From a virus: DNA of 64,000 nucleotides. Location of the stretch: IMG/VR virus record IMGVR_UViG_2921643360_000001, positions 1-64,000 of that record. One strand, 5' to 3'. The translations under genes and the position numbers were made by a program. This document shows, piece after piece, positions 3,806-58,629 of the stretch. The notes under the pieces are model-generated. The model worked only from the letters and a program-made list of their open reading frames with translations. It did not search any database and had not been told where the DNA came from. Within the stretch, counting starts at the first letter, position 1. The number at the start of each line of letters is the position of its first letter.

Positions 3806-4639
3806 TTACTTGCTGAGTTGGATCATCGGCATTGCGCTGCCCATCATGTACTGAGGGTAGTGCCCGTCCCATTTGGCGATCTTCTGTTGCTCGATCAGCG
3901 CGGGGTTTGCCTCAAGCGATTTGCCCGTCAGCTCATTGGCCTTGGCGTTGTTCTCAGCAACCTTCAGCGCTGCCTCAGACTCAACGACGCGCTTTTGCGC
4001 TTCCCACTTCGTCTGGGCAATTTCGTTCTCGACGCGCAATGCGTTCTGCTGGGCGGTGATCTTCGCCTCAATGGCGTCGTTGAACTGCTTGCTAAACTGG
4101 AAGTCAACGATGTTCACCGCCGACACATTCACGCCGATATTCTTGAACCGAGTCAGCAACGCCTCGCGGATCTCCTGACTAACCTGGTCCCGCTTCTGAA
4201 TCAGGTCAGTAGCTTCGTATCGGGCCACGATAGCCTTCACGATGTCATGCACTGCCGGGTCCATGACTTGCGCCCACGGATCGCCGCCGAGATTGGCATA
4301 AACGCCGACTGCCGCAGTCGGAAGAATATTGAAGTTGACGGCGACCTTCATGTCGGCCTGTTGCAGGTCTTTTGAAGAACCCGCGATATCCGATTGCGCC
4401 TTGTACACGCCGATGTAGACCGTGTGCATCGACTGCGAAATCGGCATACGGAAGTGGATGCCGGGCTCGTACACCGTGGCGGATGGAGCGCCGAACGTGG
4501 TCATCACGCCGACGTAGCCCGCTGGCACGGATGCGAACGGCCAGAGGATGAAAAGCGCGATGAGCAATACAACTGCGCCGATAGCGCCGAGGATCAGCTT
4601 GATGCCGCCTCGCGGGACTTCTCTGGATGCAACAGCCAT
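3806..4639 (-). CDS. SPFH / band-7 (prohibitin, HflK/HflC-like) membrane protein
   Basis: N-terminal TM helix (LILGAIGAVVLLIALFILWPF) followed by a band-7 core (GYVGVMTTFG...) and a C-terminal coiled-coil/Ala-rich tail. Start chosen at Met47 of the listed ORF (ATG at 4637-4639), which has an AAGGA RBS 7 nt upstream. Confidence 0.8.
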   Translation of the reverse strand: MAVASREVPRGGIKLILGAIGAVVLLIALFILWPFASVPAGYVGVMTTFGAPSATVYEPGIHFRMPISQSMHTVYIGVYKAQSDIAGSSKDLQQADMKVAVNFNILPTAAVGVYANLGGDPWAQVMDPAVHDIVKAIVARYEATDLIQKRDQVSQEIREALLTRFKNIGVNVSAVNIVDFQFSKQFNDAIEAKITAQQNALRVENEIAQTKWEAQKRVVESEAALKVAENNAKANELTGKSLEANPALIEQQKIAKWDGHYPQYMMGSAMPMIQLSK

Positions 4640-4795
4640 TTGATTTTCCTTGTGGGTAGAAAAAGAGACCCGAACCGAAGTCCGGGCCTTAAGCGCCGTC
4701 CCAGTGGACCTACTGGCACGGATGGAGAAGAAGTGCCGCTGCCCTTGGTTCATGCGAAACGCGCTAGGCCAATGCATGTGGGCTGCGGCGGTAAG

Positions 4796-5250: not shown

Positions 5251-5904
5251 TCAGGCGGCCATCGCCGCAATTTGTTTGTGGGTTGCGTCGACTTCGAACA
5301 GAAACTGACGCAACGCCACTTCGTACTCTTTGATCAGCGCTTCATCACGCTCCCATCGGAAGACGAACAGTTGCAGCTTCTCCGGCATGTCGGGATCGAA
5401 GCTCACAAAGTCGACGAACTCCGCGCCGGTCACCAGCGTGTTGTGCAGTACCTGATTCATGTACGTCGGCGGGATGCGTTTCTCAATCAGATACTTGAAG
5501 TGCGTTTTGGTCTTCGGGCACTTGCCCTCCCACAGACCAAGGCGACCGCCATCGACCAGAAGTCCATCCGGGCTGCAGCCCGCCATCATGTCTTCGCGGT
5601 AGACGAACCCGCATTGCTCGACCGCGATGCCGGTTTGGATCTCGTATCGCATCCTGGCGAATGGCTCTCGGTCATGCCCGCGCTCAGTGTCTGCGCTCGA
5701 AAACTCATCCGCGCACGATTTGCACAGCAATCGCTCAAGAGCCAGTTGCACGCGGTAATCGGCCCGCGTCGCCGCCTCTCCAGAACCGGACCTTGCCTTG
5801 GCGGTGACTGCTGCTGCGTTTGAGCCCGTAACACGTCCGGCGCGGTCAGCCATCCATTCTGGTGTGTTTTGCGGATGCTCCGAGACGATGAAATTCCGCT
5901 TCAT
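5251..5904 (-). CDS. YqaJ-like viral recombinase-domain exonuclease (lambda Exo-like)
   Basis: Start chosen at MKRNFIVSEHPQNTPEW (ATG 5902-5904), which overlaps the stop of the upstream annealing-protein gene. PD-(D/E)xK-like region (DGLLVDGGRLGLWEGK). Paired with an ERF-type SSAP. Confidence 0.75.
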   Translation of the reverse strand: MKRNFIVSEHPQNTPEWMADRAGRVTGSNAAAVTAKARSGSGEAATRADYRVQLALERLLCKSCADEFSSADTERGHDREPFARMRYEIQTGIAVEQCGFVYREDMMAGCSPDGLLVDGGRLGLWEGKCPKTKTHFKYLIEKRIPPTYMNQVLHNTLVTGAEFVDFVSFDPDMPEKLQLFVFRWERDEALIKEYEVALRQFLFEVDATHKQIAAMAA

Positions 5905-6713
5905 TGCGCACTCCCTCCGATTTCGCCCTTCTTCTTGTCGGCCAAAACCTTGAACTGGTTCCAGCTTGCGACGTCGCCAATCGCCTCGAACGCTGCGCCA
6001 GCCATTGCGCGAATGCGACGAATGTCGTCGGCGGTGGCTGCGGACGTCAACTGGGTTTCCCACTTCATCCAAGTTTCGTCGGCGCTAGGCTTGCCATCAG
6101 ACCCATGGCCGTCGTCGTCGGCCTGATCCTTGGTGGCTAAGCCAACAGCAGCCAGCAGCGAATAGCGCTCCAGGTAGGTCACGGTCGACGACATCGCCTG
6201 GATGCTGTTCTTCCCTCCAGACTGGTCAAGGCCGGCCTCAAGCGTCGTTTCTTCGCTATGGCCCAGCTTGTGTTTGATGACGCACGTGATGGACATCATT
6301 CCGCCTTCGGTGCGACGCGGAATCCAGCGATGACTGAATCCATAGGTCGCTAGCGACGCAACCACCTTTTCCACTACGTTGCCGATGGTGGCGTGGTCGT
6401 ACGCGGTGACCCCGCTGTTCGTCTTGAACTCGACGTGCTTGTCCTTGAGGATCGTCGGCGGGTTCAGCTTGAACTCAGCCATTGATGCGTCAAACGCCTT
6501 CCTCGCCTCGCGGTCTTCCCACTGCATTTGCATCTGCATGAGCCGTTCAAGACGATCAAGGTCGGCACCACTTTCAAGCGCATATCGCACAAGGTCTGCC
6601 GGCGTGGCGGATGCCGCGGTGACAGCGCGCGTCTGTTGAACTGCCGGTGGCTTTGCTGCGATCGGTTCGGCCATCTCAACATCTGTAATGTCTGCCATGG
6701 TTGCGGTTTGCAT
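5901..6713 (-). CDS. erf: ERF-family single-strand annealing protein
   Basis: Core resembles P22 Erf (SSTVTYLERYSLLAAVGLA vs SSYARKYCLNGLFGIDD), followed by an acidic DQADDDG stretch. Sits next to the exonuclease and SSB. Confidence 0.65.
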   Translation of the reverse strand: MQTATMADITDVEMAEPIAAKPPAVQQTRAVTAASATPADLVRYALESGADLDRLERLMQMQMQWEDREARKAFDASMAEFKLNPPTILKDKHVEFKTNSGVTAYDHATIGNVVEKVVASLATYGFSHRWIPRRTEGGMMSITCVIKHKLGHSEETTLEAGLDQSGGKNSIQAMSSTVTYLERYSLLAAVGLATKDQADDDGHGSDGKPSADETWMKWETQLTSAATADDIRRIRAMAGAAFEAIGDVASWNQFKVLADKKKGEIGGSAQ

Positions 6714-9339: not shown

Positions 9340-9607
9340 GATGTGTAGTCCTATTTGAGAGGGTTACTTCGCTACGTCAGCCCGACACCCGAGTTGTTCC
9401 GCCTACGGCTAGCGACGCAATAACGGCTCGGGATTGGGCTGCATCCGCTTTCACCCTGGCGAATCAGCCGATCCACGGTCGATTCGTCAGGGCTCAGGGC
9501 ATCCCACCCTGAATGAACCTCTTCAGCCGGTCTGGCTTCGTTCGCTTGCTGAAGGCGAGACACTTCGGTTCGGCTCTGTGCGATCGACACGCGGCACCAG
9601 CGGGGTA

Positions 9608-9730
9608 CTACCAGAACTTCGCGATGAAGTGAAAGATTGCGTAGACGCCAAGCCCAACGAATCCGAGCCAGAAAAGCGTGAACAGAACCGCCATCAGTTC
9701 AACCGTTGTAAATCCCTTTTGCTTCTTCAT
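9608..9730 (-). CDS. 40-aa hydrophobic peptide with prepilin-like N-terminus (not in ORF track)
   Basis: My own translation: MKKQKGFTTVELMAVLFTLFWLGFVGLGVYAIFHFIAKFW. Strong GGGAGGA RBS. Its ATG overlaps the stop of the next small ORF (ATGA). Confidence 0.4.
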   Translation of the reverse strand: MKKQKGFTTVELMAVLFTLFWLGFVGLGVYAIFHFIAKFW

Positions 9731-9858
9731 GCTTCCTCCCTCACTCCGATACGAAGCCTTTCATCGCGACGCTCGACCATCGAACCGCCTCGGCAGAGCG
9801 CCCAGGCGATCAGGCAGACGCCAGCCCAGACGGCGGCTATGATTTGAATGGTGGTCAT
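9721..9858 (-). CDS. 45-aa small membrane protein (not in ORF track)
   Basis: My own translation: MTTIQIIAAVWAGVCLIAWALCRGGSMVERRDERLRIGVREEA. GAGGT RBS. ATG is 2 nt downstream of the stop of 9860..10240. Confidence 0.35.
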
Positions 9859-9859
9859 G

Positions 9860-10240
9860 TCAAACCTCGATTTCGATGGGGACGGCGATAGCCAGAAGCT
9901 TCAACCGGTTGCCATCAGCGTTGCTCAGCGCCTCGGCCTCAGTCTGAAATGCGCCAGCATCAAGCGCGATCGAGTCTTCCGCCTGAGCGTCGTACACATT
10001 TACGAAAACAATCCGCTTTGGCTTGGATGCCATGCGCAGGCGATCAGCACTGAAACCTCGCGTACAGCCGGCATTGTCTTCGGCCCAGATGGTTTCGTGA
10101 CTGTCGATGCCTACATACACGACTGGATAACAATCGCCAAGATCTCCGGCCGGGGTTGCCATGATCGGCTCGCCGCGCTTGGCGGCTTCAAGGTTGAATG
10201 GCTTCAAGTCAGACTCCGGGTATGTTCGGTAGACCAGCAA
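9860..10240 (-). CDS. hypothetical protein
   Basis: 126-aa ORF. Confidence 0.4.
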   Translation of the reverse strand: MLVYRTYPESDLKPFNLEAAKRGEPIMATPAGDLGDCYPVVYVGIDSHETIWAEDNAGCTRGFSADRLRMASKPKRIVFVNVYDAQAEDSIALDAGAFQTEAEALSNADGNRLKLLAIAVPIEIEV

Positions 10241-11370: not shown

Positions 11371-12083
11371 AATACTGACGGGAGGGCGCTGTTACTGTGC
11401 CGCCGACTTCGGCTAACCTACTGCACCGCCATGCGCATGTTTCAGCGATGGGCTAACGTGGCTCAGTTTCGCGGGTACTCGTCGTTGGCAGGGAGCCCAG
11501 CGGGCCCTTTCGTCAATACTCGTCTCATGGAACGGGGCCGGCGGTTTCCATCTGATCCGGCTTGGGGCGTGGCACTGATTCCCCGCTTGTACGGCATATG
11601 CCGCTCATACCACCTATCACCGGAAGTTCGCGCCATTTAGGTCGTTCGACCGCAGGACTACCAGAGCCGGTTTCGATCTTGCTGCCCGTCACCACCGGGC
11701 TACCCGTTCCATCAAACTGCTTCTTCGGACCCATCCGGCTACACCTGGCAGGCCAGCTCCGGCCTGGGTCCGTCCTACTCCTCCACCAACCGCGCAACTC
11801 ACAAGGTCACGCGACTGCCGCAGGTGCGTTCGCTTTCTACTCGAGCGAACAGCTTTGTTCCGAGCTGCGAAAAGAAACCCCGCAGAATGGTTGGCTTAAC
11901 TACGCCTTTTGCGCACCATGGGCGCGACGTACTGTGAAGTTGTTAAAGAGCCCTCAGACTGCGAGGTGCGCCGTTGCGCGGTGTTGCTGGTATGGATAGA
12001 ACGATAGCAAACGCTCTCGAAGAACGCAAGCAAAAGCTATCGTTGATCGATAAATTTTTTTAGCGCTAGTGTTGCGCAGAAAC

Positions 12084-12105
12084 AAAAAAGCCCGCCGAAG
12101 CGGGC
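12084..12105 (-). terminator. rho-independent terminator downstream of the repressor gene
   Basis: GCCCGC-CGAA-GCGGGC hairpin, followed on the minus strand by TTTTTTGTTT. Lies 23 nt past the cI stop. Confidence 0.7.
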
Positions 12106-12127
12106 TGAACAAGCGTTTGAGTGTTTT

Positions 12128-12910
12128 TCAGGTGCTGCGATACATGCCGGATCCGCGCGGCACGATGGCGCCTACACGATGGATAGACACGATATCGGCC
12201 AGCGACCTCGTGATTGGAGGAATGCCATTGTTGATCGAACCAAGGCTGACTTCCTCATCACGGATCCACAACAATTCTTTGACGACAGCGCTGCCGTCGA
12301 CAAACTTGACCACCACATCATCACCCGGAAGAGCTTCGACGCCGGGTTCCACAACGATGTGTTCGCCACTCTTTATGCGCGGCCTCATGCTATCGCCGCG
12401 CACCTTCAAACCATAGGCCGTTGGGTCTGGTGAATGGATGTTGAGCCATCCATGGCCGTGACCTGGCGGATAGTCGTCGATACTGATAAACCCATCCGGC
12501 CCACCCTGCACTTCCCCGACCACGGCTATATCCCTCCCAGCCTTTAGTTCCAATCGCTCGCCAACGTTTGCTTCTGCTCGTGGCAGGCCTTCGATACTAG
12601 CCCCACCTTTCGGGACCGAAGGCGCAATCATGCCTGACTTTTGCCGGTTCTTCGAGATATCAGTGTCCGCTGAAATGTGGTTGCCGGTGACGCCCAAATC
12701 GAAGTAGAGAGTCGGCAAGCCAAGTTCGGACTCGAGTCGCCGCGCAGCTCCTTCGCCGAACCCGCGTCCCTCCCGATAGTTCGGGTTCAGCAGTTGTCGG
12801 ATCCGAGCCGCATCCTGGTTGTGCAGTCGAGCGAATTCAGCGGCGACCCCTCCCGCCTCCCTGTCCACTAGTTCCTGTAGCCGCTTACGGCGGTGCGCAT
12901 GTATGTCCAT
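12128..12910 (-). CDS. cI-type repressor (N-terminal HTH + C-terminal S24 LexA-like autopeptidase)
   Basis: S24 Ser/Lys dyad motifs (GDSMRPRIKSGEHIVVEP; VVKELL). Transcribed divergently from a cro-like gene. Start chosen at MDIHAHRRKRLQ (ATG 12908-12910). Confidence 0.85.
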   Translation of the reverse strand: MDIHAHRRKRLQELVDREAGGVAAEFARLHNQDAARIRQLLNPNYREGRGFGEGAARRLESELGLPTLYFDLGVTGNHISADTDISKNRQKSGMIAPSVPKGGASIEGLPRAEANVGERLELKAGRDIAVVGEVQGGPDGFISIDDYPPGHGHGWLNIHSPDPTAYGLKVRGDSMRPRIKSGEHIVVEPGVEALPGDDVVVKFVDGSAVVKELLWIRDEEVSLGSINNGIPPITRSLADIVSIHRVGAIVPRGSGMYRST

Positions 12911-12932
12911 GGCGGAATTAGAACCGAAAACT

Positions 12933-13001
12933 AGCATTTGCTGTGAAAGCAGAATTTATCATTTCAGCACGCAAATGCTTGCGTTTAGCGGAAGCATTTG
13001 C
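12933..13001. promoter_or_regulatory. operator region of the immunity switch (three copies of AGCATTTGC / GCAAATGCT)
   Basis: AGCATTTGC at 12933-12941 and 12993-13001; the inverted copy GCAAATGCT at 12971-12979. All lie in the 103-bp gap between the divergent repressor and cro starts. Confidence 0.55.
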
Positions 13002-31991: not shown

Positions 31992-32648
31992 ATGGCCCTT
32001 TGCGGAGCCAAAAACCGCAGCGGTCAGCCTTGCAAACGCCACGCAACGGTAGGAGCCAAGCGCTGCAAGTTGCACGGCGGCAACAACAAGCCGGCGAAGA
32101 AGGGTAACGCGTACGCATCCAAGCCTGGTTCGCTCTACAGCAAGTACCTAACCGACGACGAGCGCGCTATTGCCGCGTCGCTTGAACTCGGCGGCGTCGA
32201 CGAAGAGTTGCGCCTTACCCGCATCCGCCTGATGCGCGCCCTGCAGCGTGAGGCCGACAAGGGCGACACACCGGAGCTTGACGAGCAGGTTGAGCGCGAA
32301 GGCGCCGAGAACGTCACGGCCAAGAGCGAGACCAAGTACAAGGTTCGCGACTACGTGACGATGATCGACCGGCTGACGGCTCGCGTCGAGTCCCTGGAGG
32401 CGCGTCGTGCTGTCCTGCTCCAGCAGCAGACGGACATCGAACTGAAGCGCAATGCTGATCGCCGCGCCGAAGAGATGCACGACATCGAGGCGCAGGTTAA
32501 GCGTCTTGATATCCAGCGCAAACAGAAAGAAGCCGCGCTGACGAATGTCGAGATCACGAACAACATCATGCCGGTTCCGACCGCTGACAGCGTCGATAGC
32601 TGGGAGCAGGTTGCATCGGCGCAGCAAGACAAGTCGCTGGGGCGGTAA
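31992..32648 (+). CDS. terminase small subunit-like DNA-packaging protein
   Basis: N-terminal CGAKNRSGQPCKRHA...KRCKLHGG Zn-ribbon motif and a coiled-coil C-terminus. Immediately precedes TerL. Confidence 0.5.
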   Translation: MALCGAKNRSGQPCKRHATVGAKRCKLHGGNNKPAKKGNAYASKPGSLYSKYLTDDERAIAASLELGGVDEELRLTRIRLMRALQREADKGDTPELDEQVEREGAENVTAKSETKYKVRDYVTMIDRLTARVESLEARRAVLLQQQTDIELKRNADRRAEEMHDIEAQVKRLDIQRKQKEAALTNVEITNNIMPVPTADSVDSWEQVASAQQDKSLGR

Positions 32649-34207
32649 TGGCCTACAACGTCGTTTGGAAGCCGCTCCCTGGCTCGCAATCGCTGGCGCT
32701 GTCGTGTCCGTGCAATGAGATCCTGTACGAAGGGACTCGTGGGCCTGGCAAGACGGCTGCTCAGCTTGCCCGATTCCGTCGCAACGTTGGCCGCGGTTAC
32801 GGCTCGTTCTGGCGCGGAATCATCTTCGACATCGAGTATAAGAACCTCGCCGACATCATCACGCAGAGCAAGCGGATGTTTCGCCTGTTCAACGATGGCG
32901 CTCGGTTTCTGTCGTCTGCATCCGAACTGAAGTGGGTTTGGCCCACTGGCGAGGAACTGCTGTTCCGGTTCGCGAAGGACGAGGACAAGTATTGGGACTA
33001 TCACGGGCAGGAATTCCCGTTCATCGGCTTTAACGAGCTGACGAAGCAGACGAGTAGCGCCTTTTACGAGGCGATCATGTCGTGCTTGCGGTCGTCTTTT
33101 AGGCCGCAGGACTATCCGCGCCCAGATGGCTCGCTGTTGCCGAATATCCCGCTTGAGATGTTCAGCACGAGCAACCCGTTTGGCGTCGGACATGCGTGGG
33201 TGAAGAAGCGTTTCATCGAACCAGTGCCGCGCGGTCGCGTTCTGCGTACGAAGCAGGTTGTGTTCAACCCGCAGACGAAGCAGGACGAGGAAATTACCCT
33301 CACTCGCGTGGCGATTCACGGCAGTTACAAGGAAAACCCGTTCCTTGACCCGGTGTACGTCGCGACGCTGATGAATATCCGCGATCCGAACAGGCGCAAG
33401 GCTTGGGTAGAAGGATCGTGGGATGTGACGAGCGGCGGACGGTTCGACCATCTCTGGCGCGAATCGACGCACGTCATCAAGCCGTTTCAGATTCCGGCAT
33501 CGTGGCACGTCGATCGTTCGCACGACTGGGGCGAATCGAAGCCATTTGCCAATCTCTGGTGGGCGGAATCAGATGGTTCGGCTGTCGCGATAAACGGTCG
33601 GCATCGCGTATTCCCCAAGGGGACGCTGTTCCTGATCGGCGAATGGTACGGTTGCCCTCCCGGTGAGTTGAATACTGGCCTGAATATGTCGTCTACGGAC
33701 GTCGCAAAGGGCGTCAGGTGGATCGATGCACGTCTGGCTGGTCAAACTGCGGAGATGCCGGCGAGCTTGAATCAAGGCCAGGTCAATATCATGCCCGGCC
33801 TGTGCTCGAAGGTGGCGCCCGGCCCTGCCGATTCGTCAATCTTCAACACTGGCGACCATGAGTTGTCTATCGCCGAGAAGATGAGAAAGCAGGGCGTGTC
33901 GTGGCGCGAGTCTGACAAGCGTCCTGGCAGCCGCAAAAACGGCGCATCGCTCTTCTGCGACATGCTCGAAGCGGCGCTCAACGGGCAAGTATCCGAATCC
34001 GGCCAGCCGGAGGAGCCCGCTTTCTACGTTTTTGAGCATTGCCGCGGATGGATCAGCCGAATCCCGATTCTGCCGCGCGACTCGAAAGACCCTGACGACG
34101 TCGATACCAGCGCCGAAGACCACGATTGGGACGCGACGCGTTATCGAGTCCTAGTCAAGCGCGGTACTGCATCGCATCAGGCAAGCGTCCCCCACATGCA
34201 CAGGTGA
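32648..34207 (+). CDS. terminase large subunit
   Basis: Walker A YEGTRGPGKT and C-terminal RNaseH-like nuclease motifs (DWG...DHDWDATRY). Confidence 0.9.
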   Translation: MAYNVVWKPLPGSQSLALSCPCNEILYEGTRGPGKTAAQLARFRRNVGRGYGSFWRGIIFDIEYKNLADIITQSKRMFRLFNDGARFLSSASELKWVWPTGEELLFRFAKDEDKYWDYHGQEFPFIGFNELTKQTSSAFYEAIMSCLRSSFRPQDYPRPDGSLLPNIPLEMFSTSNPFGVGHAWVKKRFIEPVPRGRVLRTKQVVFNPQTKQDEEITLTRVAIHGSYKENPFLDPVYVATLMNIRDPNRRKAWVEGSWDVTSGGRFDHLWRESTHVIKPFQIPASWHVDRSHDWGESKPFANLWWAESDGSAVAINGRHRVFPKGTLFLIGEWYGCPPGELNTGLNMSSTDVAKGVRWIDARLAGQTAEMPASLNQGQVNIMPGLCSKVAPGPADSSIFNTGDHELSIAEKMRKQGVSWRESDKRPGSRKNGASLFCDMLEAALNGQVSESGQPEEPAFYVFEHCRGWISRIPILPRDSKDPDDVDTSAEDHDWDATRYRVLVKRGTASHQASVPHMHR

Positions 34208-53928: not shown

Positions 53929-55242
53929 ATGCTTATTTCGAAAATCGGCGGGGCGGTAAATAAGGTAGCGATGTCGGTCAAGCATCGCGTCGTCGGGCGG
54001 GCGATCTCTACGCTAGAGAAACCTCATCAGGCAGTTCCCGATGTCGCGATTCCCGATGTTCCCGAGACGGATGAGTCTGTTCTCGCTCGATCCGAGTCTA
54101 TTATTTCCCGGGCAATTTCTGCTGGCCGATCTGGCAAGCTGACCGTTGTTCCTGAGATGATCTCCGTCGCGGCCACGGAAAACTGCAATCTTAAGTGTGT
54201 TATGTGCCCAGGTCATGCGGGTATGAGCGGTCCGAAACTCTCAGTCAATGAGGCCGAAATGCTATTCGCCTCGCTCGCTGTTGAAGGCCCGCATTTTGGG
54301 TCGCCGAAGATCCTAGACATGACATCTGGTGAGCCCACGCTCAACCCCGACCTAGGGCCAATTTACGGCCGATTCAAAGAACTTTTCCCCGATTCGAAGA
54401 TTTCGATGATAAGCAACGGGACGATCCCCGTTCGCGGTCGAACCCGTGAAGCATTCGAACATGCTGACCGCATCGGTCTTTCGATGGACGGCGCGACGCA
54501 GGAGACGTATGAGCGGATCCGTCAAGGGTCGATATGGAAGAACGTCATTCGCAATGTGATGGACGTTGCTGAAATCAAGAAGTTGGGTGAGAACTGCGAG
54601 ACGTTGCAGATCATGATGGTTGTTATGGACCAGAATATCCATGAACTACCTGAAATGATCCGCCTCGCACATTCCCTTGGAATTCCGCAAGTGTTCGCGC
54701 AGGTTTCTGAGATTCGTACTACCCCCTTCAATATCGCAGGGCAGAACGTTTCGCTTACTCTCTCAAAGGAAAAACTCGCCCCTATAGTACACGAGGCGAA
54801 GCAGGAGGCTCAGCGACTCGGCTTGGATTTGACTCTTACGGCGCATCTGGAAAATTCACTCGTTCCGGATGAGCCAAAGCAACCAGCGACTGCTCAGATG
54901 ACACATGACGAGCGCGCGTTGAGTGTCGCGATTCGAACGTGTAATGTGCCGTGGATGCATGCACCGCGCATTTCGCAAAATCACGATGGGATCTACCCCA
55001 CAACGGTTTGCTGCCATATGCCGAATGTCCATGGCGCTGGCAATTTGGCACGCCGGGAGGAGTTCCGCGGGAAGTCGATCAACGAAATCTTCAACTCGCC
55101 ATACTATTGGGAAATTCGGGCTGGGTTGATGGATGGATCGCTTGCCAATGATGCATGCAAGGGTTGCCAGTATCACCAGATGACGCAGTGGACGGCCACC
55201 CAATTGCGCGAATTGGAAGAGGCCGTCGATGCATCAGTTTGA
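53929..55242 (+). CDS. radical SAM enzyme with C-terminal SPASM/twitch-like Cys cluster
   Basis: CNLKCVMC (the CxxxCxxC motif), SGEPTLNP glycine-rich SAM motif, and C-terminal CNVPW...CCHMP...CKGCQY. The first 60 nt are about 52 % GC, against higher-GC flanks. Confidence 0.85.
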   Translation: MLISKIGGAVNKVAMSVKHRVVGRAISTLEKPHQAVPDVAIPDVPETDESVLARSESIISRAISAGRSGKLTVVPEMISVAATENCNLKCVMCPGHAGMSGPKLSVNEAEMLFASLAVEGPHFGSPKILDMTSGEPTLNPDLGPIYGRFKELFPDSKISMISNGTIPVRGRTREAFEHADRIGLSMDGATQETYERIRQGSIWKNVIRNVMDVAEIKKLGENCETLQIMMVVMDQNIHELPEMIRLAHSLGIPQVFAQVSEIRTTPFNIAGQNVSLTLSKEKLAPIVHEAKQEAQRLGLDLTLTAHLENSLVPDEPKQPATAQMTHDERALSVAIRTCNVPWMHAPRISQNHDGIYPTTVCCHMPNVHGAGNLARREEFRGKSINEIFNSPYYWEIRAGLMDGSLANDACKGCQYHQMTQWTATQLRELEEAVDASV

Positions 55243-56506: not shown

Positions 56507-57187
56507 TTATTCTCCGAGCGCAACTGTCAAATTAGCTGCGTGATTTGCTGTCCAGACGGTTGCGAAAGCTTGCAGCGATGCTTTGCGCTCGTCATAGTCC
56601 TTGCCCAAGCCGATCATTACGGCGTTGCGCTCTTCCAGTCTTGCCAGAAGATCGAGCGCAGTCGTTGACAGGCTGTCGCGCTCAAGAGATTGAAACTTGC
56701 CTGATGCGGCCCAGTTGACCAGCCGCGCCTCATTGGAAAAATGATGCGGAGCGCATGTCTTGCCGATGGCCTCGCGGCTCAATTGCACAATCTGCGACAT
56801 GACCTTGTATGACGCTGCGGCTTCGTGGCGAAGACGTTTCTGGTCAAAGTGCGGATGCTGGCGTGTGATGAGCGCACGAATTTGCCGATCGCACCAGATA
56901 GCGAAGCGCACGTCCAGCCATCGGGCGAATCCAACCGCAAGATCGGGATGAAGCCAAGTTCCGCCGCTCTTGCCGCGCAAGGTGCGAATCCAATTACCAG
57001 ATTCTCCGGTATTTAAGGATTCATCCAAGGCAGCGATGTATTCCTGTGTGGCAGGAAGGGCGAGCCAGTCATTCGGACGCTTGCCGAATTGCGAGGCGAT
57101 GGCTGTCGCATTGAACCAACCTTCGTCAGTAAATGAGACGGCCACGCCTTGGTAGTCTGCGACGATGATTTGCTGTTTGGGGGCCAT
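56507..57187 (-). CDS. KilA-N domain protein
   Basis: N-terminal KilA-N/APSES-like segment (VSFTDEGWFNATAIASQFGKRPNDWL...GGTWLHPDLAVGFARWLD). Confidence 0.65.
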   Translation of the reverse strand: MAPKQQIIVADYQGVAVSFTDEGWFNATAIASQFGKRPNDWLALPATQEYIAALDESLNTGESGNWIRTLRGKSGGTWLHPDLAVGFARWLDVRFAIWCDRQIRALITRQHPHFDQKRLRHEAAASYKVMSQIVQLSREAIGKTCAPHHFSNEARLVNWAASGKFQSLERDSLSTTALDLLARLEERNAVMIGLGKDYDERKASLQAFATVWTANHAANLTVALGE

Positions 57188-58014: not shown

Positions 58015-58629
58015 ATGCAACTCACAGCACAGATTGTCGCGTCAGGGTGTGGCTCAGCGCTTCTTCGGGCGGCGCAGTGGGTCGCCCCGCTCCAATCCGC
58101 CTGCGACCGCTACCACATCGACACGCCTCTGCGCGTCGCGGCCTTCCTGTCGCAGATCGGCGTCGAGTCTGCCCGCCTCACCGCCCTCGTCGAAAACCTG
58201 AATTACTCGGCAGAGGGTTTGCTCGCAACCTTCCCGAAGTACTTCAACGCAGTGCAGGCGGCGCAGTACGAGCGACAGCCGCAGCGCATCGCGAATCACG
58301 TCTACGCGAATCGGTACGGCAATGGTGACGAGGCGAGCGGAGATGGATTTCGATTTCGCGGCAGAGCGTTGCTCCAGATAACCTTTAGAGACAACTATGC
58401 CTCATGCGGTAAGGCGATTGCGCTGCCTCTCGACTCACATCCTGAGTTGCTTGAGCAACCATGCAATGCGGCGCTCGCGGCTGGCTGGTATTGGGACTCG
58501 CGCAACCTTAACCCGCTGGCCGATGCCGGTCGATTCGAGGGCATCACGCGCGCTATCAACGGCGGGCTCGCAGCGTATTCCGAACGCCTCGCTCTCTATA
58601 GCGCTGCAAAGAAGTCACTCGGTATCTGA
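58015..58629 (+). CDS. endolysin, glycoside hydrolase family 19 (chitinase-like)
   Basis: GH19 catalytic signature GNGDEASGDGFRFRGRALLQITFRDNY. Confidence 0.85.
   Translation: MQLTAQIVASGCGSALLRAAQWVAPLQSACDRYHIDTPLRVAAFLSQIGVESARLTALVENLNYSAEGLLATFPKYFNAVQAAQYERQPQRIANHVYANRYGNGDEASGDGFRFRGRALLQITFRDNYASCGKAIALPLDSHPELLEQPCNAALAAGWYWDSRNLNPLADAGRFEGITRAINGGLAAYSERLALYSAAKKSLGI

Follow-up and report, generated by a model that had tools for sequence, protein, structure and literature searches.

The DNA analyzed here, hereafter the window, is a stretch of 64,000 nt that represents a prophage of Paraburkholderia steynii. The P. steynii contig MWML01000013.1 is identical to it across 6,348 nt, and the 126-aa product of a gene that neighbors the region described below is 99% identical to a protein of this species. 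With Pfam we located, on the minus strand, an integrase (481–1554), an SPFH protein (3806–4777), a YqaJ exonuclease (5251–6072), an ERF recombinase (5901–6713) and an S24 (CI/LexA-type) repressor (12128–12937), and on the plus strand the large terminase (32648–34207) and a weak match to GH19 (endolysin-type, 58015–58629), which at 22.8 bits lies below the gathering score of 25.5. As listed, the YqaJ ORF begins with TTG at 6072 and shares ~170 nt with the ERF gene, so that its true start is probably located further downstream. The SPFH/Band-7 membrane protein is part of the early-left operon and has a counterpart in a related Burkholderia multivorans-type phage locus (L054, 1257–2057), so that a second early gene for a membrane-associated protein is conserved. 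A radical-SAM protein of 437 aa (53929–55242, plus) and a KilA-N protein (56507–57187, minus), possible morons or defence-related cargo, are located between the tail-fibre region and the weak GH19 match.

The leftward operon is tightly packed, and a slot of ~250 nt in it would be empty were it not for two overlapping micro-ORFs that together occupy it. A preliminary description had noticed them at 9608–9858 and left the strand unsaid; both are indeed present there, on the minus strand. The first one, ORF-A (9727–9858), starts 1 nt past the stop codon (9860–9862) of the preceding 126-aa gene, has a Shine-Dalgarno sequence GAGG (9865–9868, minus) 6 nt 5' of its ATG and inside the end of that gene, and codes for a single-pass membrane peptide with an N-terminal transmembrane (TM) helix and an Arg-rich tail, MTTIQIIAAVWAGVCLIAWALCRGGSMVERRDERLRIGVREEA. 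It had been given as a membrane peptide of 45 aa; the length is 43 aa, and its membrane character and its coupling to the next frame through ATGA both stand, the TGA stop overlapping the following ATG at 9727–9730. The second one, ORF-B (9608–9730), ends in a TAG stop codon that we read directly at 9608–9610, and its translation in the minus-strand ORF listing is MKKQKGFTTVELMAVLFTLFWLGFVGLGVYAIFHFIAKFW, i.e., 40 aa. The GGGAGGA ribosome binding site reported for it was read at 9734–9740 (minus), 3 nt 5' of the ATG and within the 3' end of ORF-A. ORF-B would code for a mini-prepilin with a KFW tail, in which three segments, all on the minus strand, can be told apart: a predicted leader MKKQKG that ends in Gly-1 (9713–9730), with the predicted prepilin-peptidase cleavage after 9713; a segment similar to the alpha1N of pilins according to the profile alignment and AlphaFold2 (9641–9712, mature residues 1–24, including F1, T2, E5, G20, G22 and Y24); and a C-terminal tail, Y-A-I-F-H-F-I-A-K-F-W, conserved in the family alignment and reaching up to the stop codon (9611–9643).

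The pair had been called unannotated, and rightly so, since the identical contig MWML01000013.1 has no gene calls over this stretch and the exact ORF-B peptide was not found in a collection of 15 billion proteins. The ~268 nt located 3' of ORF-B (9340–9607, minus) may be non-coding. The sole ORF there, a 72-aa frame with a GTG start (9372–9590, minus), was rejected as a gene: it has no Shine-Dalgarno sequence, the deposited gene calls do not include it, and related loci lack a conserved counterpart. Rfam gave no match anywhere in the window.

Regarding expression, a strong intrinsic terminator with a 7-bp GC-rich stem and a T-run (12089–12106, minus) is located directly after the S24 repressor gene, and the cassette sits in the leftward early operon 3' of it. 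Between this terminator and the first leftward early gene there is an intergenic region of ~700 nt (11371–12088), presumably the PL/operator region. A simple sigma-70 scan detected no sigma-70-like promoter near the cassette or in 11371–12088. The ORF-A/ORF-B pair thus looks like part of an early-left (PL-type) operon and not like an autonomously expressed moron. The position in the early operon, past the terminator, and the lack of a detected promoter of its own make expression during lytic growth likelier than expression in the lysogen, and an early-lytic role likelier than a superinfection exclusion centred on the lysogen.

A class III signal peptide is defined by a short, basic and hydrophilic leader ending in an invariant Gly at position -1, followed by Phe at +1, Thr or Ser at +2 and Glu at +5, and then by a stretch of ~21 mostly hydrophobic residues (PMC4471445). 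ORF-B fits this sequence definition: the leader is MKKQKG, F7, T8 and E11 occupy the positions +1, +2 and +5 (the Gly, Phe and Glu had been correctly pointed out before), and the peptide continues hydrophobic up to F33. The window peptide by itself stays under the curated cut-offs, with 16.5 bits for PF07963 (gathering score 21.2), and TIGR02532 (IV_pilin_GFxxxE, cut-off 16.3) is not listed for it at E ≤ 0.01. Among its relatives, TIGR02532 recognizes 34 of 54 members at E ≤ 0.01 (best 2e-9), and two members that were searched singly scored 16.3 and 16.6 against the cut-off of 16.3.

A phmmer search with ORF-B among 1.84 billion protein representatives retrieved 52 of them at E ≤ 1e-3 (best 1.6e-9), nearly all 40–41 aa long and aligned end to end; one of the matches (P0012) was discarded as a repeat-protein false positive. 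Conservation was counted over an alignment of 46 members, numbered from the predicted cleavage site. The leader has most often six residues, with Gly-1 in 45/46 members and Gln-2 in 37/46. On the mature side, Thr+2 is present in all 46, Phe or Tyr at +1 in 44, Glu+5 in 43, Gly+20 in 31 and Tyr+24 (Y30 of ORF-B) in 38, and small residues recur along the helix at Gly/Ala/Ser17, Gly20 and Gly/Ala22. In the tail, His+28, Phe+29, Lys+32 and Trp+34 (H34, F35, K38 and W40 of ORF-B) are found in 46/46 members. Of 45 members, 43 have a mature form of exactly 34 residues. Among 43 distinct DNA versions synonymous codons vary freely at the invariant residues (CAC 26 and CAT 17 for His, TTC 28 and TTT 15 for Phe, AAA 22 and AAG 21 for Lys), with all three stop codons in use. 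A Shine-Dalgarno-like element was found at 20 of 23 distinct prepilin-type loci. The free synonymous variation at invariant residues, together with these elements, indicates that selection acts on the translated peptide, and ORF-B is a real gene under protein-level selection, not a chance motif.

When the family profile was compared to all PDB sequences only type IV pilins were matched (geopilin, MshA, PilA, PpdD and PilE), with a best E of ~8e-6. Family positions 7–30 align without gaps with residues 1–24 of PpdD, PilE and PilA, and Y30 of ORF-B falls on Tyr24. AlphaFold2, run with the family alignment, gave one continuous helix over residues 9–39 (mean pLDDT 92), which, along with the constant mature length, fits a fixed transmembrane geometry. 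The prepilin-like reading of the preliminary description is therefore strongly supported and can be extended, since the motif is kept family-wide and is accompanied by Thr2, Glu5 and Tyr24. In pilins, cleavage of the prepilin depends strictly on Gly-1, and Glu5 is “always dispensable for processing” but required when the filament assembles (PMC4471445); the Phe1 amine of one subunit is bonded by Thr2 and Glu5 of its neighbor, and the aromatic band of the core is made up of Phe1, Tyr24 and Tyr27 (PMC5059446). Given that Glu5 is dispensable for cleavage and that Thr2, Glu5 and Tyr24 serve pilin–pilin packing, what has been conserved in the family corresponds to docking residues as well as to a cleavage signal.

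We also looked for members of this family in known phages. Megablast and blastn searches with the region against 50,697 phage records gave no match, a word-indexed protein search with the window peptide yielded no candidate, and tblastn with two other family members found nothing, probably through low-complexity masking. With ORF-B itself as query, tblastn against phage genomes detected full-length relatives in Aeromonas phages. One of them is vB_AdhS_TS3, a T5-like phage of the Demerecviridae, which contains an unannotated 37-aa member, MKRAKGFTLIELIFCILALGLLGGGGYVVIHFIAKFW (2501–2614 of the locus examined, L001, equivalent to OP820700.1 7483–7596), in the left-terminal region at ~6.5% from the genome end. 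In T5 the pre-early genes occupy this position. The other is the T4-like Ahp1_CNU-2021 (Straboviridae), with the member QIW87140.1 (...GFTLIEMIF...HFVTKYW), a peptide that in the word-indexed search retrieved its own cluster only. Family members are found in siphophage-like early regions of temperate type, which have ERF, NinB and Gp157, in these lytic T4-like and T5-like Aeromonas phages, and on jumbo-sized contigs of 160–430 kb. In every locus read, the neighbors were phage early genes (ERF, YqaJ, NinB and small hypothetical proteins). Gene callers mostly miss the family, as happened both here and in TS3. The string HFIAKFW appeared in no paper of the searchable literature, and literature searches gave no description of the family. 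ORF-B belongs thus to a widespread and previously undescribed family of phage membrane micro-proteins.

ORF-A has a much narrower distribution. Partners of the same build and with the same 4-nt overlap were found at L032, L033, L034 (=L021) and L036/L037 (=L011/L014), plus the window, with identities of 31–42%, and all the loci that have such a partner are of 56–59% GC. The common build is an N-terminal TM helix followed by R-G-[AG]-D..RR and a charged tail, with a 4-nt overlap between its stop codon and the start of ORF-B. Outside this closest clade, the gene upstream of the ORF-B homologue is unrelated and usually codes for a soluble product. ORF-A as a universal partner was therefore rejected, being absent beyond the closest (Burkholderia-type) clade, and no conserved partner gene exists downstream of the ORF-B homologues either. 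Within the clade the flanking genes differ among the loci that carry the pair, indicating that ORF-A and ORF-B travel as a module. We consider ORF-A quite likely to be a real gene, though one that is an accessory of this clade. The positive-inside rule predicts a cytoplasmic location for the Arg-rich tail, which would place ORF-A antiparallel to ORF-B, of which it is possibly a modulator or partner.

The C-terminal tail is more widespread than the prepilin motif. The last 10 residues (x-x-x-H-F-I-A-K-F-W, then stop) had no match in Pfam, PHROGs, NCBIfam or PDB. We have defined a KFW-tail family as single-helix ORFs of 29–55 aa that end in Y-x3-H-F-[ILV]-x-K-[FY]-W followed by a stop codon, a definition that includes ORF-B. 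A first scan with a degenerate DNA pattern (Y-x3-H-F-[IVM]-[AT]-K-[FY]-W-stop) found 24 loci in IMG/VR and 3 among 185,579 species genomes, and in all cases (24/24 viral, 3/3 genomic) the match was the 3' end of a 29–55-aa single-helix micro-ORF. A second pattern added 35 further loci. These tail-defined relatives span 24–67% GC, and G-[FY]-T-x-x-E was present in ~10/24 and ~7/35 of the motif-only matches. In total, 59 distinct KFW-tail members were collected, 25 prepilin-type and 34 not, and there are intermediates, such as MKGFTTAAL... (without Glu5) or RAYTLVDL.... Profile–profile comparison of the prepilin and non-prepilin groups gave 98.6% probability over 29 columns, a value that is partly circular since both groups were picked by the tail. 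As most tail-defined relatives are devoid of the prepilin motif, the shared core function may sit in the tail rather than in pilin mimicry.

The three genomic matches were located in Patescibacteria, Uhrbacteria and Eisenbacteria MAGs (L027 931–966, L028 566–601 and L029 86–121); all are genuine members and the host of the window is not among them. The one from Uhrbacteria shows K-G-Y-S-N-M-E-L, which is similar to the prepilin motif. In many non-prepilin members (L008, L018, L024, L082, L045, etc.) a sub-motif F-W-G-[TV]-x-I-Y recurs just 5' of the HF-x-x-KFW tail, and several prepilin-type members echo it with Trp at mature position 15 and Gly at 17 and 20. This recurrence suggests that the conservation of the surface reaches beyond the last 11 residues.

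Among the described systems, the closest are the type IV pilins and pseudopilins (TIGR02532, PF07963; PilA, PilE, PpdD, MshA, GspG), which share with ORF-B a 6-residue basic leader ending in Q-K/R-G, Phe1, Thr2, Glu5, small residues at ~17–22 and Tyr24. However, the mature form of ORF-B would have 34 residues, without alpha1C, globular domain or Pro22, the family ends in an invariant H-F-I-A-K-F-W tail that is absent from pilins, and the gene is located in a phage early region, apart from assembly genes. A pilin subunit has either an alpha1 of ~53 residues plus a globular domain or, in the alpha1-only forms, 40–60 residues, and pilins are encoded together with an ATPase, a platform protein and a peptidase; ORF-B is smaller, and its neighbors are phage early genes. 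The statement that it is far too short to be a pilin must nevertheless be softened: 34 residues are below an ordinary pilin, but Tad pilins reach down to 40–60. Indeed, alpha1-only pilins such as those of the Tad/Flp type (40–60 aa, with the 45-aa PilA of C. crescentus as an example) or the Geobacter PilA-N (PMC10710030, PMC5059446) illustrate that a pilin can be hardly more than one helix. Flp pilins, unlike ORF-B, have long leaders, no Phe1 and, at the C-terminus, a hydrophilic patch that makes up the surface of the filament. Geobacter PilA-N pairs with the PilA-C of the adjacent gene, whereas ORF-B is shorter, has a hydrophobic and aromatic tail and has no such conserved downstream partner.

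Phage genes that copy subunits of type IV pili have been described before. Prophage-encoded FimU mimics (P-FimU, in F10-like prophages) give anti-phage defence, and lytic Pseudomonas phages code for truncated PilA proteins of ~60 aa, for which incorporation into the pilus or an assembly block has been proposed (Sztanko et al., PMC12952977). However, P-FimU is a functional minor pilin of full size that the prophage expresses, whereas ORF-B has 40 aa, a distinct tail, a location in an early lytic operon and a much wider family, and its resemblance to pilins is restricted to the N-terminal 24–30 residues. A tblastn search with the first 60 residues of PAO1 PilA for truncated phage versions retrieved only full-length pilins, in three records (two labelled Acinetobacter phage MD-2021a and one Salmonella genome record). 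Small phage membrane peptides acting on pili exist too. PfsE of Pf4, an inner-membrane peptide of ~30 aa with a cytoplasmic N-terminus and an aromatic cluster, blocks pilus extension and superinfection via PilC; binding to PilC was shown experimentally, and a C-terminal tag inactivates it (PMC8764522). Tip and Aqs1 act through PilB. The likeness of PfsE to ORF-B is only architectural and, as predicted, functional: there is no sequence similarity (the Y-x-W-G-W of PfsE is absent from ORF-B, which has H-F-I-A-K-F-W), and PfsE has no prepilin signal. By sequence, then, ORF-B is neither a P-FimU-type nor a PfsE-type protein, and its product is best described as a minimal form of a known theme, that of pilin mimics encoded by phages or of small membrane peptides that inhibit pili.

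Our tentative reading, to which we give almost even credence, is that the ORF-B peptide is cleaved by the host prepilin peptidase, mimics the core helix of pilins and interferes with the type IV filament machinery early in lytic growth. The peptide would be a mini-prepilin with a 6-residue basic leader ending in Gly and then a single helix of 34 residues, the first 24 of which would copy the alpha1N of type IVa pilins and pseudopilins, the last 10 forming the aromatic and cationic tail specific to the family. The position of the gene suggests that, upon induction or infection, the peptide would be made from the leftward early operon; it would then be inserted in the membrane with the N-terminus in the cytoplasm. 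PilD/GspO would then cut after Gly-1 and N-methylate Phe1, as the conservation of every recognition determinant suggests. The mature peptide would enter the membrane pool of pilins, where it might dock on pilins or on the assembly platform via Phe1, Thr2, Glu5 and Tyr24, acting as a dead-end or poison subunit that, in the early part of the lytic cycle, blocks type IV pili and/or type II secretion, e.g., to halt further adsorption of pilus-dependent phages. We propose a dead-end subunit because the peptide has neither alpha1C nor globular domain and its hydrophobic and aromatic, membrane-anchoring tail is unsuited to a filament surface. Co-assembly of the peptide into the pilus would still be conceivable, since with Tad pilins of 40–60 residues (PMC10710030) the shortfall is only about 6–10 residues. 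What the preliminary description had put forward, that such a peptide might hinder type IV pili or the type II secretion machinery with superinfection exclusion as the outcome, is plausible.

Several findings count against a pilus-directed role. No pilus or secretion genes are adjacent at any locus examined, the prepilin signature appears only in the fractions of tail-bearing micro-ORFs given above (~10/24 and ~7/35), and the window peptide stays under the curated HMM thresholds. In addition, we know of no use of pili by T4-like and T5-like Aeromonas phages.

The main rival explanation, possible but less likely in our opinion, starts from the tail. The TM helix with its Y-x3-H-F-I-x-K-F-W end would be an effector whose target is a different conserved component of the inner membrane or the periplasm, or else lipid, and the prepilin leader would be only a device for insertion with the N-terminus in the cytoplasm and for leader removal, giving the same leaderless peptide of ~30–34 residues that the non-prepilin relatives make directly. 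The very short N-termini of these relatives resemble the predicted mature form, most of the tail-defined relatives keep the tail, an upstream Gly and the single TM helix in the absence of G-F-T-x-x-E, and the profile–profile match between both groups, partly circular as it is, points in the same direction. The wide GC range, with Patescibacteria and Eisenbacteria MAGs included, argues for a near-universal target; type IV filament systems, however, are themselves nearly universal in prokaryotes (PMC4471445), so that a broad host range is compatible with them as the target. Besides, cleavage needs Gly-1 and not Glu5 (PMC4471445), yet Thr2 is invariant and Glu5 is kept in nearly all members, and the collinearity with pilins reaches Tyr24.

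The conservation of all the determinants recognized by PilD, the strong Shine-Dalgarno sequence and the early-operon position would also suit a peptide that inhibits the prepilin peptidase or competes for it as a pseudo-substrate, and which in early excess would starve all prepilins of processing and switch off pili, type II secretion and competence together. We find this improbable, as it leaves unexplained Glu5, Tyr24, the invariant tail and the relatives devoid of the motif. Just as little credence is given to a peptide that oligomerises into a pore or depolarises the membrane (in the manner of a holin, an antiholin or a type I toxin), altering the timing of lysis or excluding superinfecting DNA: the small residues at 17, 20 and 22 of a single hydrophobic helix would suit helix packing and a second small membrane peptide, ORF-A, adjoins, but ORF-B lies ~48 kb from the GH19 endolysin region, is found in early regions in every context examined, and its prepilin signature would be left unexplained. 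Finally, both micro-ORFs might be non-coding chance frames in GC-rich DNA, neither of them having been called in the deposited annotation and an antisense ORF of 137 aa (9434–9847, plus) covering the region too. The protein-level conservation with synonymous variation effectively refutes this for ORF-B, the position, overlap and architecture of ORF-A are conserved in five distinct loci, and the antisense ORF was rejected as a gene since it is not conserved in the relatives, leaving chance a practically negligible probability.

Going further along the poison-subunit reading, phages might have acquired the 5' part of a gene for a type IV pilin and trimmed it to a fixed, PilD-processed subunit of 34 residues, which would be the smallest prepilin-peptidase substrate known, with the KFW tail locking it at the membrane and stalling the pilus or type II secretion platform. 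The wider KFW family, from temperate, T4-like, T5-like and jumbo phages to the candidate-phyla MAGs, would then be pan-phage inhibitors of type IV filament machines derived from the same scaffold. This is a speculative extension that we judge unlikely as it stands.

Whatever the mechanism, a conserved family of phage micro-proteins has now been defined that lies outside all Pfam, PHROG and NCBIfam models. Among phage receptors, virulence factors and DNA-uptake machines, type IV pili and type II secretion systems hold a major place. If the proposed role is true, phages would have in only ~120 nt a widespread tool that turns off pilus and secretion machines from within the membrane. The peptide would also serve as a natural scaffold in the design of anti-virulence agents, and as a minimal substrate with which to study the prepilin peptidase and the docking of pilins.
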